From Candidatus Sungiibacteriota bacterium (lineage in GTDB: Bacteria > Patescibacteriota > Minisyncoccia > Sungbacterales > JACQCQ01): a DNA stretch of 64,000 nucleotides. The translations under genes and the position numbers were made by a program. Below the pieces are notes generated by a model, which worked only from the letters and a program-made list of their open reading frames with translations, searched no databases and was not told the DNA's origin. The stretch covers positions 80,830 to 144,829 of the forward strand of contig JACQCQ010000013.1 in the NCBI GenBank assembly GCA_016201505.1, written 5' to 3'. Of the stretch, positions 11,048 to 47,629 are shown piece by piece. Every line of letters begins with the position of its first letter. Position 1 is the stretch's first letter.

Positions 11048-11782
11048 TTACTTTGCCGCTTCAAGAGCCGCCTCAATCGCGGCTTTAAATTGTGCGTAGG
11101 GCTGGGCGCCGGAAATCCCGATGCCGTTTACAAAAGTGAAGGGCGTACCGTTCACGCCCAGCCGCGTACCCGCCCCGACTTCTTTGGCGATCGCCTCGGC
11201 GTACTTGCCCGAATCGAGACAATCATTGAATTTGGCCTGATCAAGCCCGATGTTTTTTGCCCACAGCTTCAGATTGGCAATTGAAAGATCGGGCTGGTTT
11301 TGAAAAATCGCATCGTGCATTTGCCAGAACTTGTTCTCTTCTTTGGCGCATTGGCCGGCTTCTGCGGCTTTTTCGGCCATGGGATGAATACTGGAAAGGG
11401 GAAAATCACGATAGACGAATTTCACTTTACCCGTGCGCACATAATCGCGGACCAAGCCCGGCTCGACCGACTGGAAAAATTGTTCGCAAAACGGACACTG
11501 GAAATCTGAAAACTCAACGACCGCGACTTTGGCGTTCGGATCACCAAGTATGGGATCGTCACTGGCGTAATAGGCCGCGGTGTCGGGAGAAGTATTTTTT
11601 GTGTCGCGCTTCAATGACGGAGCGCCGTTTGAATAAAGCACCGCGAGCGCAATGATAACGCCTGCCGCAATAATCGATCCGGGTATCAAATAATTCGTTT
11701 GGCCATCGGGGGCTTTTATTTCTTCGTCCATAGGCGGAAAAAATGAAGCTCGCGGCGTAGCCGCGAACATCTTGCATTTCAT
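11048..11782 (-). CDS. DsbA-family thiol:disulfide oxidoreductase, membrane-anchored. The start is uncertain.
   Basis: FSDFQCPFCEQF thioredoxin-like CxxC motif; N-terminal TM helix; DsbA-like length. Confidence 0.7.
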   Translation of the reverse strand: MKCKMFAATPRASFFPPMDEEIKAPDGQTNYLIPGSIIAAGVIIALAVLYSNGAPSLKRDTKNTSPDTAAYYASDDPILGDPNAKVAVVEFSDFQCPFCEQFFQSVEPGLVRDYVRTGKVKFVYRDFPLSSIHPMAEKAAEAGQCAKEENKFWQMHDAIFQNQPDLSIANLKLWAKNIGLDQAKFNDCLDSGKYAEAIAKEVGAGTRLGVNGTPFTFVNGIGISGAQPYAQFKAAIEAALEAAK

Positions 11783-12064
11783 CCTGATGAACTCATGCAA
11801 GATACAGCGCCTGCCGGCAGGCAGGGAATCCCCGCCTGCCATCTGCCTGTCACACGAGCTTAGGAAAGTGTGAGGATATAGAGTGTTCTGGCGATATATG
11901 GCGGAGTCTTATGACACAGGCACTGGCGGGCAGGCGCCAAAGCATCCGCATCTCGACTCAGCGGGCGATCATCGCTGTTTTTGAGTAAATATTTAAATGC
12001 GCTAAAAGCCTCCTGGCGGCGGCGGAGCTTCCCCATCATACGGGAAGTTCTAGTCGCTGGCAAA

Positions 12065-15633: not shown

Positions 15634-15686
15634 ACAATCAAAGTACATTATTCTAACTTATCAAACCATAGCGTTGCATCATCGAT

Positions 15687-15718
15687 AAAAGTTCGATAGA
15701 CTAGTCTATCGAACTTTT
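15687..15718. promoter_or_regulatory. Operator type 2, copy a: AAAAGTTCGATAGACT|AGTCTATCGAACTTTT, 32-bp perfect palindrome between the TrpR-like gene stop and the rseP start.
   Basis: Perfect inverted repeat sharing the core GTTCGATAGACTAGTCTATCGAAC with copies at 16149, 20417, 29422 and 35243. Confidence 0.6.
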
Positions 15719-16143: not shown

Positions 16144-16148
16144 AGTAT

Positions 16149-16180
16149 ATTAGTTCGATAGACTAGTCTATCGAACTAAT
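16149..16180. promoter_or_regulatory. Operator type 2, copy b: ATTAGTTCGATAGACT|AGTCTATCGAACTAAT, 32-bp perfect palindrome 5 nt upstream of the TrpR-like start codon and overlapping the tlyA stop.
   Basis: Perfect palindrome with the same 24-bp core as 15687-15718. Confidence 0.6.
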
Positions 16181-19856: not shown

Positions 19857-20215
19857 GCCACATAATTCGGAATTAATACATAACCAGGCGATTTTTTCGC
19901 TTTTGTGGATAAGATCGCCGAGGTCAGCACGAAAAATAGAATATACTATATATAGGATTACGTTCGAGATGAATTCATGTTCTTTCGGGCTGGAGTGTCC
20001 GGTCCATCCGTTGAAGAAAGAAGTCTTTCTTTGCACCAATTCATTTCTGTAGACGGCTAGCTCTTTTGTCAATTCATTCGTCCCTTTCCCTGTTGGAGAT
20101 TTTATTCTCCCTCTCGGGCGGGATCCTCGAAGGAGGATCCGACTATTCAGCGCTTCTCGCGGTGACCTCTCTTTTTTACGCGATTGAGGCAAAACATCTG
20201 AATGTGTTGGGCCTC

Positions 20216-20320
20216 CTTTTTCTTTGGCGCGAAAAGCTCCACGGCCGCATCAGGCGCGGCCGTGGCATCTCGCTTTTTCGCTTTGGGCGAAACTCTTGTG
20301 AGATCGGCGGAATCGCACCT
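20216..20320. ncRNA. Candidate structured RNA / conserved element, copy 1 of 2 (the other at 47398-47490), upstream of holB.
   Basis: Stems: CCACGGCCGC/GCGGCCGTGG, TTCGC/GCGAA, ATCTCGC/GTGAGAT. The same three stems with altered loops recur at 47398-47490. Confidence 0.35.
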
Positions 20321-20416
20321 GGCATATAATCTTTGACATGGCAGAGAATATACCAGCTGTTTCCGCATTCATCCACAGGCTTACGCCCACGGCTTTCTGT
20401 GATGGTAGGTAAACAC

Positions 20417-20448
20417 TATAAGTACGATAGACTAGTCTATCGTACTTA
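20417..20448. promoter_or_regulatory. Operator type 2, copy c: ATAAGTACGATAGACT|AGTCTATCGTACTTAT, with a symmetric T-to-A variant in both half-sites. It lies upstream of holB.
   Basis: 32-bp perfect palindrome; the half-site change is mirrored, preserving dyad symmetry. Confidence 0.55.
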
Positions 20449-20545
20449 TGCGTATGCAATCTAAGGTTCACAAAACACCCGACATCTGCCAACTGGCGGA
20501 TGTCGGGTCGATCTTTGCATTACTACACCTACGTACTCTCACCGT

Positions 20546-25075: not shown

Positions 25076-26412
25076 TCTAAACGCACCTCGCATAAGGATC
25101 AGGCTTTCGCCTGCTAGATTTCGATCTCGGGCAATCTCCACGCCGCAGGCAAGGTGCACCTCGCCAAAAGCACGTCTCCGCTGCAGCGGAGCAAGACGAC
25201 CCGAGCTCTGTTATCCCGAACATCGGTACGATTTTTTTTTGCGATGCAGATACCGAGGTAGCGGAGGAAGCAGACGCCCAGTAGAGGATCGGGCGAAGGC
25301 ACTACCTACTAGCTAACCCGATCATACGTGATGTCCACCCCCGCGCTTCTCATCACCTTGTCCAGTGATACTCCGCAAGCGCCACGGGATTTCCTGCATC
25401 GCAAACTGAATTTCTATTTTTCCTTATCTCATCCTGGAGTTTTCGCCGCGCCAAAATTTTTATAAATAAAAACTTAGGCGGGCGTCCGACCTTCTAGGAT
25501 CACTGTTCAATCAGTTTGCTAGTTTTCTAGTTGACTAGTTAACTAGTAGGTCGCTAAGCGACCGGAACTGATGAACTGACAGATTCCTAAAAAGAATATG
25601 TTCCATCGACAGCTTCCGCTACCGATGCCTTGTTCATGTTCTCCCTATGTCGCCATAAGGCATGGACTATATCATCACCCTTTGTTGCAATGTCTTGATT
25701 TTTCTCGGATGCCAACTTCCGATAATCTTCAAGAAGTTTTCTTGAGATTTTTTCGAAATAAACATTCGGAAATAATCTGGATCTATGTGGAAACTTGGAT
25801 TATGGATTTTCCCCGATTGGATTCCAAAACTTATCAGCATTTGTTTAAGTTTCTCCAGTTTGATGCGATCATTCTGCACCAGTTGAATGTAAAACCTTGC
25901 GGATGGACTTCTTGGAATTCCTCCCTCGGCATCAAAGAATCCTCTTAAATACGCTATTTTTTCCTCAGCTGAATTTAACCGCTTAGGATCGAATTTTGTA
26001 TCTAAGAATTTTGCTCTTGTTTCCAATACATACACTTTACGATTTCTGCCTTCGCGATATATCCAGGAGGTATTATCCGTTAGCGCTAGGCAAGATTTTA
26101 GTACTGATAACCAATCAGTACCTAGCTGCGCAAACCGGTGTCTTTGGTTATACCGATTGAAGGTGCCATCGTGAAGCGCACCGAGTAAGTATGCTCGGCA
26201 TTCTGCAACAGAAGGGGCTTGGCGTGTAGTCTCTGAGGCGCCTCCGACGTTACGTCGGAGTTGCCTGCTGATTGTCTGCGCTTTTCGCATTATCACTTCT
26301 AGAACTATTTTAGCTCTATAAGTAGCAAAAAGATACTCAGGTTTTCCAGCATATAGCCAAGTTTTTATGTGAGAATTACTCCTCACAAGTCGCAACGGAC
26401 GCAGTCTGCGCC
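25076..26412 (-). mobile_element. About 1.3-kb intron-like insertion near the 16S 3' end (E. coli position about 1506-1520) encoding a LAGLIDADG homing endonuclease.
   Basis: 16S exon sequence (positions about 1400-1505) occupies 26396-26497 and the terminal about 22 nt occupy 25051-25072. The intervening 1.3 kb has no 16S similarity and carries the LAGLIDADG ORF. Confidence 0.6.
25667..26395 (-). CDS. Double-motif LAGLIDADG homing endonuclease (intron-encoded). The track ORF begins with a TTG; the start is uncertain.
   Basis: Two LAGLIDADG-like motifs: LLGALHDGTF and YLRGFFDAEGGI. Length 242 aa. Confidence 0.8.
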   Translation of the reverse strand: MRLVRSNSHIKTWLYAGKPEYLFATYRAKIVLEVIMRKAQTISRQLRRNVGGASETTRQAPSVAECRAYLLGALHDGTFNRYNQRHRFAQLGTDWLSVLKSCLALTDNTSWIYREGRNRKVYVLETRAKFLDTKFDPKRLNSAEEKIAYLRGFFDAEGGIPRSPSARFYIQLVQNDRIKLEKLKQMLISFGIQSGKIHNPSFHIDPDYFRMFISKKSQENFLKIIGSWHPRKIKTLQQRVMI

Positions 26413-26497
26413 TACGACTTCGTCTTTGTCACCGATCCTACCGTGGGCCACCATAAGTGGACTTCGGGTATTACCAGCTCCCCTGACGTGACGGGCG

Positions 26498-27232
26498 GTA
26501 TTAAGATCACTTCTGTGTCTTACACCACTGGGCGAACGGTTTTCCCGTACCCTAGCGGTTTCTTATATCGCTTTCGCGATATAGATTCGTCCCTTCCCGA
26601 GCACATATTTTTGGAGTCTATTGACGAAATTTATCAATAGGTATATAAATTGTATACGAGGAGGTGAAGGATTATGTTGGGTATCGCGGTTCCACCGATC
26701 CCTGCAAACGCGGGTGTCAGTAGCGATCCGGAAGGACTGCTCGCGCTCCTTCTTCTGATGTTCGTCGTTGTTCCGTCAATCATCGTCATTTTCGGCGGCG
26801 CGATCATGGCGAACGTCGAAGACTGAGATCAGCGGACGGCTTTCACCCCCCACAGCGGCCTCCAGGAGGTCGCTTTCAATTTCTCCAAAAATATGTGCTC
26901 GGTACTATGGATTCTGCTGACTTCTCAATAAGCATCAAGATAAAATTGCTTTTATCCTTTACCTTTCGGACTTAATAAGATCTCCTTCGGTCACCGAATA
27001 TACCATTCTCTCACATCTCGATACTCCGTATATAGCGTAAAATTTGTGCAGATGACTTCTCCATGTACTCGAAGGATCGTCGATCTACGCTACCTATTAG
27101 CGAGTATTCAAGCTATAAGACATATACTTTCGCCCTTCATCCTGAGGATCACTCCTCGAAGGACTGCGATTTCATTTCGCGACTTCTGCAAATCGTGGTG
27201 GGATTTAAACCCACTGGCATACTCGGCTGCAA
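26498..27232 (-). other. About 735-nt insertion in 16S at the conserved 1400 region, between GACGGGCGGT and TGTACAAG.
   Basis: Universal 1392 primer-site sequence is split: ...GACGGGCGGT at 26485-26494 and ...GTACAAAGCTCGAGAACGTATTCACC at 27235-27262. Confidence 0.6.
26674..26826 (+). CDS. Candidate 50-aa hydrophobic peptide with a strong Shine-Dalgarno, encoded inside the 16S insertion (antisense to the rRNA).
   Basis: AGGAGGTG is 5 nt upstream of the ATG. Translation MLGIAVPPIPANAGVSSDPEGLLALLLLMFVVVPSIIVIFGGAIMANVED has one predicted TM helix. Confidence 0.3.
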   Translation: MLGIAVPPIPANAGVSSDPEGLLALLLLMFVVVPSIIVIFGGAIMANVED

Positions 27233-27708
27233 AGCACCCGAGTACAAAGCTCGAGAACGTATTCACCGCGGCATAGCTGATCCGCGATTACTAGCGATTC
27301 CATCTTCAAGGAGTCGAGTTGCAGACTCCTATCTGAACTGGGGCGCACTTTGATGGGATTAGCTCCGCCTTGCGGCTTGGCAACCCATTGTATGCGCCAT
27401 TGTAGCACGTGTGTAGCCCAGGGTATCAGAGGGCCATGCTGACCTCGCGTCATCCCCTCCTTCCTCTCCCGAAAAGGAAGCAGTCTCTCCTGACACATAT
27501 AACAGAAGACAAGGGTTGCGTTCGTTAACCCACTTAAGGGAACAGTTCAAACCACGAACTGACGAGGGCCATGCAGCACCTGTGATTGCCGTCTTGTGAA
27601 CACACCGCGGTTTCTCGCGGTTTTTGCAATCATTTCAAACCCTGGTGAGGTTCCTCGGTTGTCATCGAATTGAACCACATGCTCCACCGCTTGTGCGAGC
27701 TCCCGTCT

Positions 27709-27740
<32 letters not shown>

Positions 27741-27838
27741 TCCCAGGCGGCAGATTTAACGCGTTAGCTGCGCCACTCCGAGGGTCGATACTCGAAATAG
27801 CTAATCTGCATCGTTTAGGGCGTGGACTACTGGGGTAT

Positions 27839-28920
27839 CTACAATTTTGTTGCGACAAAATTGGAATTTCTAAATCCGAATTTCTAATTTCTAAACAAAT
27901 CCGAAATCTCAAATTTCCAAATTGCGGACGAGACATTTCTGCTCGTCTCTCCGTATCGCTACGGAGATCGGACTGTATCATGACGGAAAGTATTACTGGC
28001 GCGGGTTTCGCTTTCGCTCACCCGCGCCGGGACTTCCGCCCTCGGCGTGCAGTCTCTGAGGGTTACGAAAGAGAGATCGGCGCTGTTTCTACATGCCGAT
28101 GGCCGAAACCGGGCCCGTCGAGGCTATCTCCGTAGCTTTCCTTGACGATGCGCTCGACGCGTACCACATTACCCATATCTTGAGCGATGGCGCGAGCTAC
28201 ATTGTCACCTTGAGCTTCGAACTCTACGACTGCCCAATATTTCATAGCTTCTCCTTTTCGTCCTTCCCTGCTGGTTGTCCGTTGACCGATCCGCGTTTAG
28301 CGGATACAGGTCGCACCGGATGCTTTTTTACCACTACTTTACATCGAACTTGCTGACTTCCTTCCGCATTCCTTCAAGGACCCTGCGAATCTCCGGCGAA
28401 TTGCCGTACTTCGCGAGGTACTTGTCGATCAGCTCGAGAAACCCGTTCTGCATGGCCTCGCGGGCCATTTGAGTGAACAAGCTCATTGTTTTTTTCCTTT
28501 CTGTGGTAGCACCGGATACACCGGATGTTCCAGCATATAGCTCCGCCGTCGCCTCACGGCTATGGCGGATCCCAACTTCACCATCATATTTTTCAATGGT
28601 GCGTCGGGACAAGTTTTCCAGGCAGTAGAAATTCGACTCGCTTCACAGCTGGCCGCAGAGAGGCCGGTCGAATTTCTACTGCCTGGTTTTTCCTTTTGAC
28701 GCGTTACTTCGCGTCCTAAGGGGACCATGCTCACGGTACCCCTACCGCCTCACTCTCGTTCGCTGTATCAACAGCGCCCTCAAGCGAGTCACATGTATGC
28801 ACAGAGAAATTTTTTCGAAACTCAAGGGAGGGATCCCGTCGTCGGAACGACAAATCCCTATGGGGAGAGTTGTAACATGCTCCTCCCTTGGTGATGAAAA
28901 AATTTCTCTGTGCAAAACAT
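27839..28920 (-). other. About 1.1-kb insertion in 16S after the 785-805 site. It contains small ORFs (28063..28245 and 28334..28612, minus strand) and a hairpin repeat element.
   Basis: 16S blocks on either side are contiguous in normal 16S (GGACTACTGGGGTATCTA at 27820-27838 and CCCATTCGCTCCCCACGCTTTCG at about 28925). The intervening sequence has no rRNA similarity. Confidence 0.55.
28613..28686. repeat. Hairpin element with 21-bp perfect terminal inverted repeats CCAGGCAGTAGAAATTCGAC...GTCGAATTTCTACTGCCTGG (family member 1).
   Basis: Perfect inverted repeat with a 28-nt interior. The terminal repeats match the element at 29205-29332. Confidence 0.6.
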
Positions 28921-29204
28921 GCGCGAGCGCTTTCGATCCCATTCGCTCCCCACGCTTTCGTCTGTGAACGTCAGGACAAGGCCAGCAACATGCCTTCGCC
29001 TTTGGTATTCCCTATGATATCAACGGATTTCACCCCTACACCATAAGTTCTAGTTGCCTCTCCTTGCCTCTAGTCGTGCCGTTTCGAATGCGGCCTACGA
29101 GTTAAGCCCGTAGATTTAACACCCGACTAACACGACCGTCTGGAGACCCTTTACGCCCAATAAATCCGGATAACGCTTGAAGCCTTCGTATTACCGCGGC
29201 TGCT

Positions 29205-29332
29205 GGCCAGGTAGTAGAAGTTCGACTGCGCGCGAGCGCAAATTATTTTCGAACATTTAATTTTCAGAGCCATGACAGATAGTGCTCCCAACTACAGAAA
29301 TCTTCATTTCATAGTCGAACTTTCACTACCTG
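29205..29332. repeat. 128-bp hairpin intervening element inserted in the 16S 530-loop region. Terminal repeats CCAGGTAGTAGAAGTTCGACTG / CAGTCGAACTTTCACTACCTGG. Family member 2 (IVS/MITE-like).
   Basis: The insertion splits the universally conserved GCTGCTGGCAC (519 site) into GCTGCTGGC | element | CTGGCAC, with a CTGGC direct repeat. The 22-bp terminal inverted repeats are near-identical to those of the 28613 element. Confidence 0.65.
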
Positions 29333-29344
29333 GCTGGCACGAAA

Positions 29345-29995
29345 TTCTACCGCCAATTTGGACTATATCATCACCCCGATGTTCATCGGGGGTCCCGCGT
29401 GTAGTCTCTGAGGGCTCTCTGCTATAAGTTCGATAGACTAGTCTATCGAACTTATAGAAACAGGTTGCCTGCTGATTGTTTCGTTGCGCGTCTTTGCAGT
29501 TTGCAAAACATTTCCGCGGACACAACGAAGTGTTCCAGTCCCGCAAGCCTCCCCACCGCAATACACTGATGTATTGTAGTGGCATGACTCACAGGATTCC
29601 CGAATCCATCTTTTCTTACGGCCAATAGGGCCGCGGGATTGCGATTTGTAACTACTCCGCCTTCGCTAAAAGCTTCGGCGGACAAGTCGTTACACTCGCA
29701 GACAAATCGGGAACATATAGCGAGATTTTCTTATGACGTATTACTACGCCAACTTCGCACCAAGTTTTTCTAACTTCACGAAGTTTGCAGCTTCTTATTC
29801 ATCTGGTACGGTCAGTCGTGCCTCGCTCTAGCGAACCACTCTCAATTTTAAATTTCCAATTTCTAATTTTCAATGAATGTCCTAATGTCTCAATTTCCAA
29901 AGGTTTGGGGTATTGAATCATTAAGAATTGACTGAAAATTGCAAAATTGATCATTGCAAATTGTGTGCCTCACAAAAGTGAGACACGACTTCTTC
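29345..29995 (-). other. About 540 extra nt in the 16S region between E. coli positions about 400 and 515. It contains the operator type 2 palindrome and sequence blocks shared with the LAGLIDADG intron.
   Basis: Blocks GCGTGTAGTCTCTGAGGG (29396-29413) and GTTGCCTGCTGATTGT (29464-29479) also occur at 26222-26238 and 26261-26276 within the LAGLIDADG ORF region. Conserved 16S resumes near 29995 (CTTTACAGACCGAAGTCCTTCTTCCTGCACGCGGCG). Confidence 0.5.
29422..29457. promoter_or_regulatory. Operator type 2, copy d: CTATAAGTTCGATAGACT|AGTCTATCGAACTTATAG, 36-bp perfect palindrome, located inside the 16S insertion.
   Basis: Identical 36/36 to the copy at 35243-35278. Confidence 0.55.
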
Positions 29996-30237
29996 CCAGA
30001 TAAAAGCAGTTTACAGACCGAAGTCCTTCTTCCTGCACGCGGCGTCGCTCGATCAGGCTTTCGCCCATTGTCGAATATTCTCGACTGCAGCCACCCGTAG
30101 GTGTATGAACCGTATCTCAGTTTCATCGTTGGGGATCACGCTCTCACGCCCCCTACCCGTCATAGCCAAGGTGCGCCATTACCACACCTTCTAGCTGATA
30201 GGACCAAGGCTCCTCCCCGAGCGCTCTTGCGAGCTTT

Positions 30238-30296
30238 ACCCCGCCTAAATTTTTGAGCTTTTTCATACTTTCAAAAAGCTCAAAAATTTAGGCGGG
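30238..30296. repeat. 25-bp perfect-stem hairpin expansion in the 16S V1-V2 region.
   Basis: CCCCGCCTAAATTTTTGAGCTTTTT-catactttc-AAAAAGCTCAAAAATTTAGGCGGGG. Confidence 0.5.
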
Positions 30297-30624
30297 GACC
30301 ATTGAGTATTAGCCAATCTTTCGGCTGGTTATTCTCATCTCGGGGGTAGATTCCAAGGTATTACTGAACTCGTTCGCCGCTAACTGGCAAATTGCGCGTA
30401 GCTAATGGAAAATAGTATTGCTACTATAAGCCATCCGCCAATTGCTATAAGCCAATTCGCACGACTTGCATGCCCTATCCACGCCGCCAGCGTTCATCCT
30501 GGACCAGGATCAAATCCTCTAATAGATCAGTTAGTTTTTCAGTTTACTAGTTGCCTAGTTCACATATTGCTAACTGCCGAGAACAAGAGGAAGAAAGAAA
30601 CGAATTTTTAGAAAACTCGCGAAA

Positions 30625-35242: not shown

Positions 35243-35278
35243 CTATAAGTTCGATAGACTAGTCTATCGAACTTATAG
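35243..35278. promoter_or_regulatory. Operator type 2, copy e (36-bp perfect palindrome) upstream of the membrane GH gene.
   Basis: CTATAAGTTCGATAGACTAGTCTATCGAACTTATAG, identical to 29422-29457. Confidence 0.55.
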
Positions 35279-47254: not shown

Positions 47255-47397
47255 TACAGTAGACTACTGTCTACTGTCCACCGACTACAGCCGGAGCGGT
47301 AGTCAGTAGTCTGTAGTCAGTATGCTTTTAATACCGAGATAGGATAACAAAATACGACTATTTTGACAACACTCACGACATGTTTTAAGGAAGAAGC

Positions 47398-47490
47398 GAC
47401 AACTATGAAGCTCCACGGCCGTGAGGCCGTGACATCTCGCAATTCGCCTTCAGGCGAACTCTTGCGAGATCGGCGGAATCCGCCAAAGCA
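47398..47490. ncRNA. Candidate structured RNA / conserved element, copy 2 of 2 (the other at 20216-20320), upstream of rpmF.
   Basis: Shares AAGCTCCACGGCCG..GCCGTG.CATCTCGC..TTCGCC....GGCGAACTCTTG.GAGATCGGCGGAATC with 20216-20320. Three stems are preserved with different loops and one G-U-compatible change on the plus strand. Confidence 0.35.
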
Positions 47491-47629
47491 TCCATTCCTT
47501 AACTCGGCTTAGGGTTATCCGTTGTAATCGCATTCAACCTCAGGCTAACGCCCGATGTCTTCTGCGACGGCGGATAAAAATACGGGGGAACGTCGCCGTT
47601 CCCCCACTCACCACGGATGCGGACTTCCG

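Follow-up and report, generated by a model that had tools for sequence, protein, structure and literature searches.

Two short non-coding stretches of a Candidatus Sungiibacteriota contig, one lying upstream of holB and the other upstream of rpmF in the 64,000-nucleotide piece of DNA analysed here (hereafter the window), closely resemble each other and raise the question of what the unit common to them is, on which strand it acts and how it came to occupy both loci. The likeness is not a product of chance, because blastn of one copy against the whole window recovers the other at E = 4e-14; on a covariance model the two score E of about 1e-40 to 1e-50. A first-pass annotation, made from the letters of the window, had described a pair of conserved elements of about 95 nt. 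Its common blocks, AAGCTCCACGGCC, GGCCGTG.CATCTCGC and AACTCTTG.GAGATCGGCGGAATC, are all seen in our alignment and both copies are real, but the length is about 180 nt, not 95, as the homology runs on for about 90 bases past the stretch first noted, through a 3' extension common to both copies (CGCATTCA.CC.CAGGCT.ACGCCC, then TTCTG.GA.GG). Nor is it only a pair: a third copy lies at 11743-12031. The conserved unit is a dispersed structured non-coding element of about 180 nt (up to 290 nt), which is kept for its fold. The three copies and their helices are as follows, the scores being those of R1, a covariance model built from five sequences.

20231..20418, plus strand: copy c1 (152.8 bits, E = 6e-40)
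20239-20265, 20267-20303 and 20305-20318, plus strand: P1, P2 and a degenerate P3 of c1, followed by the 3' domain to about 20415
47405..47583, plus strand: c2, the canonical copy (192 bits)
47407-47412 with 47487-47492, 47414-47431 and 47434-47470, plus strand: P0, P1 (GUGA loop) and P2 of c2
47472-47484, 47497-47514 and 47515-47577, plus strand: P3 (AAU loop), P4 and the 3' domain P5/P6/P7 of c2
11743..12031, plus strand: c3, the diverged copy (38.7 bits, E about 1e-9; re-found with filters off)

Run with filters off, R1 finds exactly three copies in the window. Homologues in related CPR genomes, for which a search had been proposed, were obtained from Sungbacteria both by pattern scans and with the covariance model. 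Scanning the GTDB representative genomes for an exact match to 19 bases of the best-conserved block gave eight matches with two true homologues (L001 and L004), and a second exact pattern run over JGI metagenomes gave six matches with one (L014); the remaining matches to these patterns were chance occurrences inside coding regions (Terracidiphilus, Novosphingobium and others). R1 added two further copies, c3 in the window and L020, which lies upstream of holB in another Sungbacteria genome (146.8 bits). About 330 kb of other Sungbacteria loci held no copy, and L020 was the only further copy in the loci collected by synteny, namely MreB-rpmF (L015-L019) and RseP-holB (L020-L041). Exact-pattern scans of viral contigs gave no homologue, and BLAST against phage and plasmid collections gave no match. 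The family thus has seven members, c1, c2 and c3 in the window and four outside it, which come from related Candidatus Sungbacteria assemblies and one metagenome contig.

The carrier of L001, assembly GCA_964494945.1, is labelled 'uncultured Candidatus Saccharibacteria', and has the gene order MreB-rpmF-nusB-rnc as in the window; the label is probably wrong. Conservation across phyla, which this label would suggest, was rejected, as the MreB of the same assembly is 86% identical to that of the window. Given this value, and the assignment of the L004 assembly to Sungiibacteriota, all carriers are fairly close relatives and not members of different phyla. The MreB and RseP encoded in the window are themselves 100% identical to proteins of a Candidatus Sungbacteria MAG. 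The element is restricted to one Sungbacteria subclade, comprising a few related groundwater bacteria. Within this range the copies are 60-78% identical and none are near-identical. Those of the window are mutually about 65% identical or less, and c2 is 71-78% identical to copies in other genomes versus 65% to c1. As the window copies are less alike among themselves than c2 is to its counterparts in other genomes, they are old paralogues and do not stem from a recent burst. The most eroded full-length copy is c1, with 10 non-pairs in the consensus fold.

In the plus sense the fold falls into two domains, a junction (P0-P3) and a 3' domain (P5-P7), with the variable hairpin P4 between them. The junction is closed by the short helix P0 (GAAGCU/AGCAUC), inside which lie the hairpins P1, P2 and P3; of these, P2 carries a conserved internal loop (AAU / ACUCUU) and P3 reads GGCGG-AAU-CCGCC. 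The 3' domain is closed by the long-range helix P5 (UAUCCGUUGU/ACGGCGGAUA), enclosing P6 (UCGCA/UGCGA) and P7 (GGC-UNAC-GCC). The minimum-free-energy fold of c2 is identical to this consensus. Loops differ between corresponding hairpins, just as had been pointed out (atcag(gc) versus gtga, tttgg versus ttca), and in the plus sense include cUUCGg in L004 and GUGA in c2. Hairpin tips accommodate large insertions: in L004, P1 is longer by 36 nt and the 3' domain by 20 nt, and c3 has a branched insertion of 125 nt in P3 that keeps the G-AAU-C apex. Compensatory changes are found in P1, P2a and P2b of c3, which also carries the inverted repeats I1, I2 and I4. A GC-rich palindrome, CCTGCC(T)GCCGGCAGGCAGG, is found at 11810-11825 of the window (in P3 of c3), at 2134-2151 of L004 (in the 3' domain) and at 389-406 of L022; its presence as an insert in two copies of the element and elsewhere in a relative suggests a tiny mobile hairpin.

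The compensating stems of the first-pass annotation hold up, but not on the two copies from which they were proposed: c1 and c2 alone give one compensatory pair, and it is the five further copies that supply the support. In the seven-sequence model alignment 90.8% of the predicted pair cells are standard pairs, versus 34-47% when the partners are slid by 1-3 columns. Both sides have changed in 16 of the 54 pairs versus 6.4 in shuffles, and the shuffled control suggested at the outset bears the covariation out, with none of 500 shuffles reaching 16. The double changes fall in P1 (three pairs), P2b (five), P2a (one, plus G-U changes) and P7 (one); P5 alone, 81% paired, shows them in five of its 10 pairs. 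P0, P3 and P6 are nearly invariant and therefore uninformative in this respect. Overall, compensatory changes are retained in at least six helices. The P2 and P6/P7 modules share, in direct orientation, the series UCGCAUUC ... CUYUUGCGA ... GGCGGA, and the score of their alignment is reached by none of 500 shuffles in c2, L001 and L014; to judge from this pattern they look like an internal duplication.

The element family is an orphan, absent from Rfam and of lineage-restricted range. The Rfam scan that had been recommended was run, and no family matched any of the seven copies: with Rfam 15, c1, c2 and c3 stayed without a match at the gathering threshold, as did c1 and c2 when E was relaxed to 10 and L001, L004, L014 and L020 when it was relaxed to 1. 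A tRNA, tmRNA or tRNA-like identity was rejected, with ARAGORN finding no genes in the window and the loop of P3 having 3 nt in place of a 7-nt T-loop. 6S RNA has a rod-like fold with its 5' and 3' ends paired around a central bubble; this identity too was rejected, as the element has unpaired ends, a 5' junction domain, a separate 3' domain and no match to the Rfam 6S family. SRP RNA, RNase P RNA and known self-cleaving ribozymes were likewise dropped.

We also considered a small protein translated from a conserved ATG (MKLHG...), as ATGAAGC is kept in six of the seven copies and ORFs of 35-88 aa begin there in c2 and L004. However, the length differences of the hairpins are not multiples of three and shift the frame, such that L014 reads the conserved block in another frame, and a TGA lies within the block CTCTTGTGAGAT in c1 and L001. 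The ORF of c3 has five codons, c1 is devoid of the ATG, a ribosome-binding site is not consistently present among the copies, and a six-frame pseudo-peptide chimera found no match among 5.8 billion proteins at E up to 10. The small-protein reading is already refuted by the frame and stop-codon pattern, and we accord it practically no chance.

Among known RNAs, the element can be compared with Rfam-type candidate RNAs of unknown function that came from comparative genomics, such as the raiA motif and OLE. Like these, it is intergenic and non-coding, has multiple helices with compensatory changes, conserved junction and internal-loop nucleotides and variable peripheral hairpins, and is of narrow taxonomic range. 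It differs from them in that its locus changes from genome to genome and its orientation is uniformly antisense, which is unusual for a housekeeping non-coding RNA gene.

This raises the question of which strand carries the function. The first-pass annotation had argued for an RNA-level function read from the plus strand, and had called attention to a C-to-T change in the ATCTCGC/G(C/T)GAGAT stem that keeps a G-U pair on the plus strand only; this change is present as described. Over the model alignment the ratio of G-U to A-C in the plus sense is 27:10. As the model structure was derived in the plus sense, which introduces a slight bias, we recounted on independently predicted pairs; those predicted from both strands gave 10:3 and the union of the two predictions gave 25:16, all these counts resting on about 8-15 variable columns in seven related sequences. 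P5 was predicted in the plus sense only; C and U interchange in its 5' strand, while the G-rich 3' strand facing them stays constant. In six of the seven copies the consensus fold has the greater stability when read in the plus sense. The reverse complement of c2 gives z = -6.3 versus -5.5 in the plus sense, and the minimum free energies of the two strands are similar in all copies; thermodynamics is therefore not decisive on this point, since both strands fold equally well. On the pairing statistics the plus strand is favoured, not proven, as the functional strand. Thus the strand tests lean the way of the earlier claim, but they stop short of an independently transcribed small RNA: nowhere on the plus strand do the copies share a promoter-like site at constant spacing (the best candidates score 7-8/12 at scattered distances). 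For most copies no convincing plus-strand terminator follows the element. At 47363-47369, between c2 and rpmF, a TTGACA on the plus strand overlaps the TTGTCA of a minus-strand promoter-like site; this hexamer could serve as a shared -35 box of divergent promoters for rpmF and for a plus-strand transcript of c2. The -10 candidate that goes with it on the plus strand, TAAGGA, is poor.

The surroundings of the copies bear on the same question. Long ORFs lie on the minus strand in 45 of 53 cases and the GC skew of the plus strand is negative throughout the window, indicating that the plus strand is the lagging strand, i.e. the leading-strand template. c1 lies between the gene for a peptidoglycan-binding protein and holB, c2 between an 80-aa ORF and rpmF, all four on the minus strand, which confirms the placement of both copies upstream of holB and rpmF and antisense to the flanking genes; c3 occupies the spacer between a Pyr_redox gene and a dsbA-like gene. 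All seven copies are antisense to both of their flanking genes. The chance of such uniform orientation is about 2-3% if the loci are counted as five or six independent cases in co-directional arrays. The downstream genes, encoding HolB, RpmF, a DsbA-like protein, a SIMPL protein, a DEAD-box helicase and a large surface protein, have no function in common. Several features of the gene strand at these loci have to be considered together with this orientation.

12035..12063, minus strand: promoter-like TTGCCA-17-TATGAT (10/12 matches), just before c3
47582..47607, minus strand: strong intrinsic terminator of the 80-aa ORF (11-bp stem with 7 G-C pairs, tail ATTTTTAT)
47341..47369, minus strand: promoter-like TTGTCA-17-TATCCT of rpmF, downstream of c2 in the gene sense

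The uniform orientation means that the reverse complement of every one of the seven copies runs in the direction of the downstream gene and could be transcribed with it as a long structured 5' UTR, serving as attenuator, processing element or riboswitch-like sensor. In the gene sense, c3, L014 (TTGACA-17-TATGCT, 10/12) and L004 (9/12) are immediately preceded by promoter-like sites, and the start codon follows 12 nt past the element in c3, 22 nt in L001 and about 30 nt in L004 (a range of 12-37 nt). With promoters before these copies and start codons close behind them, gene-strand transcription through c3, L014 and L004 (and, by the start distance, L001) is almost unavoidable. Like riboswitch classes, the family consists of diverged paralogues before different genes, with a conserved core and variable peripheral hairpins; the z-score of the gene-sense fold cited above fits such a leader; and in c3 the P1 hairpin together with UUCAUUUUUU has the score of a terminator on the gene strand, immediately ahead of the ATG. 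However, the terminator-like feature is specific to c3, and a general terminator/antiterminator formed by P1 and a U-run was rejected on this ground. Read on the gene strand, all three counts given above become an excess of A-C over G-U, P5 cannot form, and the C-to-U changes in P2a of c1 and L001 yield mid-helix C-A mismatches; a riboswitch-like leader would not be expected to keep its G-U pairs on the opposite strand. The best-conserved copy, c2, is boxed between the strong terminator, which abuts its 3' end in the plus sense and whose U-tract is the terminal AUAAAAA of the element, and the rpmF promoter, such that a gene-strand transcript through it is unlikely; thus c2 lies upstream of the promoter where a leader would lie downstream. 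Furthermore, the distance to the start codon extends from 12 nt up to 375 nt (c1 to holB), and neither a functional theme among the downstream genes nor a common expression platform is seen. We therefore regard a cis-acting leader on the gene strand as an unlikely explanation, though one to be taken seriously.

A further line of evidence comes from the comparison of orthologous spacers; the insertion-like distribution that emerges there had been missed in the first-pass annotation, as had the 3' half and the third copy. The gene order holB-BNR-RRF-FtsJ-RseP-...-Pyr_redox-DsbA is conserved in relatives. The Pyr_redox-dsbA spacer measures 46-55 nt in L020, L026, L028 and L032 versus 334 nt in the window. 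In the relatives it contains a promoter (TTGCnn-17-TAnnAT) 9-15 nt from the ATG, and the promoter-like site next to c3 is orthologous to this dsbA promoter of L020, L026 and L028; the window keeps the promoter, with 289 nt of c3 between its -10 box and the ATG. Similarly, the MreB-rpmF spacer is 122 nt long in L015, the closest relative, versus about 900 nt in the window. With orthologous spacers empty in relatives and c3 placed between promoter and start codon, the element behaves as an insertion. Its locus differs in every carrier genome, and even the two holB-proximal copies, c1 and L020, flank the following block differently.

20050..20139, no strand assigned: Block X, non-coding, between c1 and holB, outside the element

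Block X matches 3634-3715 of L020 in blastn (76% identity over 92 nt, E = 6e-11); relative to the element it is on one side in the window and on the other in L020. It contains a hairpin, GGATCCTC-GAAG-GAGGATCC, with no Rfam match. A separate observation concerns the dsbA-like genes of L020, L026 and L028, where the conserved promoter lies so close to the ATG that, as far as the spacing can tell, leaderless or near-leaderless dsbA mRNAs would be implied in the Sungbacteria lineage.

Insertion-like behaviour invites a purely selfish explanation, namely a non-autonomous mobile DNA element moved in trans, whose fold serves mobility, either as single-stranded DNA ends or as an RNA cofactor, with no function for the host. 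The short, non-coding, intergenic nature of the element, its presence or absence at orthologous sites and its orientation bias are shared with PATEs and with the ERIC, Correia and REP/BIME repeats. A classical MITE was rejected, as neither c2 nor c3 has ends linked by an inverted repeat and no direct repeat consistently flanks the copies. Elements of the IS200/IS605 group neither end in inverted repeats nor duplicate their target site. They enter the DNA 3' of a fixed short motif, depend on a hairpin at both ends and show a strand bias, and they have ends-only derivatives (PATEs) of about 270 nt (PMC7290912). The present element has neither coding capacity nor terminal inverted repeats, and its orientation relative to replication is uniform. 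Its two related hairpin modules point the same way, but the left one lies about 30 nt inside the element, behind P1. An AT before GAAGC is conserved in six of the seven copies, beyond which the upstream sequence is A/T-rich and not fixed. Against this explanation, the copies are few and old in view of their 60-78% identity, and the fold is complex and not palindromic, with covariation in at least six helices, far more than two end hairpins require. The strand that tolerates G-T is the plus strand, i.e. the leading-strand template, whereas the bias of IS200/IS605 is towards the lagging-strand template (PMC7290912). No transposase-type domain (Y1 TnpA or TnpB) was found in the tested ORFs of the 64-kb window, and no transposase, TnpB or reverse transcriptase among the tested ORFs beside the copies; the phage, plasmid and viral-contig searches described above also count against it. 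On balance we consider it rather improbable that the element is selfish DNA alone, though this explanation too is to be taken seriously and is about as probable as a gene-strand leader.

Based on these observations we prefer, tentatively and with a confidence that stays below an even chance, to view the element as an insertion-like structured RNA, read from the plus strand and lying antisense to the leader of its neighbour gene. This is because it accommodates both the plus-strand pairing signal and the strict antisense orientation. In this proposal the element, which appears in and disappears from intergenic spacers much as an insertion does and always lies opposite to the strand of the neighbouring genes, would most likely be expressed as a plus-strand structured RNA with ends expected near AUGAAGC and GGCGGAUAAAAA. 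In each case the gene to the 5' side of the element, in the window holB, rpmF or dsbA, would have a promoter-proximal leader or spacer to which this RNA is complementary, and the RNA could exert a cis effect, either antisense or by transcription interference; the conserved fold and the twin modules suggest that it may additionally bind a protein partner. The data show the family, its fold, its non-coding nature, its presence or absence at orthologous sites and its orientation, from which plus-strand transcription, antisense action and protein binding are inferred. A precedent is RNA-OUT of IS10, a cis-encoded antisense RNA of a mobile element: the predicted plus-strand RNA is likewise structured and opposite the 5' region of the adjacent gene, but the genes adjacent to our element are ordinary host genes and not transposases. 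Several points weigh against the proposal. A plain antisense role needs no such elaborate conserved fold; a positionally conserved plus-strand promoter and, for most copies, a convincing terminator are lacking; gene-strand promoters lie just before c3, L014 and L004; and the reverse strand folds as well as the plus strand.

A variant that combines the mobile and the RNA aspects is distinctly less probable. According to it, the element would belong to a novel type of non-autonomous mobile element in CPR bacteria and would rely on a pseudo-two-fold structured RNA to move or to function. A recombinase, nuclease or reverse transcriptase encoded at some other place in the genome might then use the twin modules, for instance as its RNA cofactor or guide or as its substrate, and insertion in one orientation into promoter-proximal spacers would rewire the expression of the adjacent gene. 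Irrespective of the mechanism, the finding is best filed as an orphan structured element akin to two known kinds, the lineage-specific structured non-coding RNA and the dispersed intergenic element.

Very few non-coding RNAs have been described in CPR/Patescibacteria, and in genomes as reduced as theirs non-functional DNA can take up little space. An element capable of inserting between promoter and start codon offers a concrete handle on both gene regulation and the mobile or selfish elements of these bacteria, and with the seven-member alignment and model, groundwater metagenomes and metatranscriptomes can be searched specifically for it. Were it only a decaying repeat its value would be modest, and it would still be a marker of lineage-specific genome dynamics.

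Other repeats and insertions were encountered in the window. Between c2 and the rpmF start codon, at 47255-47310, are nested long palindromes, GACTACAGCC...GGCTGTAGTC and CAGTAGAC...GTCTACTG, which presumably lie inside the rpmF leader. A palindrome of about 30 nt, AAGTACGATAGACTAGTCTATCGTACTT, occurs five times (20417-20449, 29422-29457, 35243-35278, 15686-15716 and 16148-16180), four of these copies being in short intergenic spacers and one within an insertion of the 16S rRNA gene; it resembles a dispersed palindrome of the REP or terminator type. The 16S rRNA gene itself (25643-30525, minus strand) is split by several large insertions, and its region contains a group I intron match with a LAGLIDADG ORF (25667-26290) and a weak group II D1-D4 match (26884-26960). 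The same arrangement of rRNA end, group II-like match and LAGLIDADG gene is found in L020.
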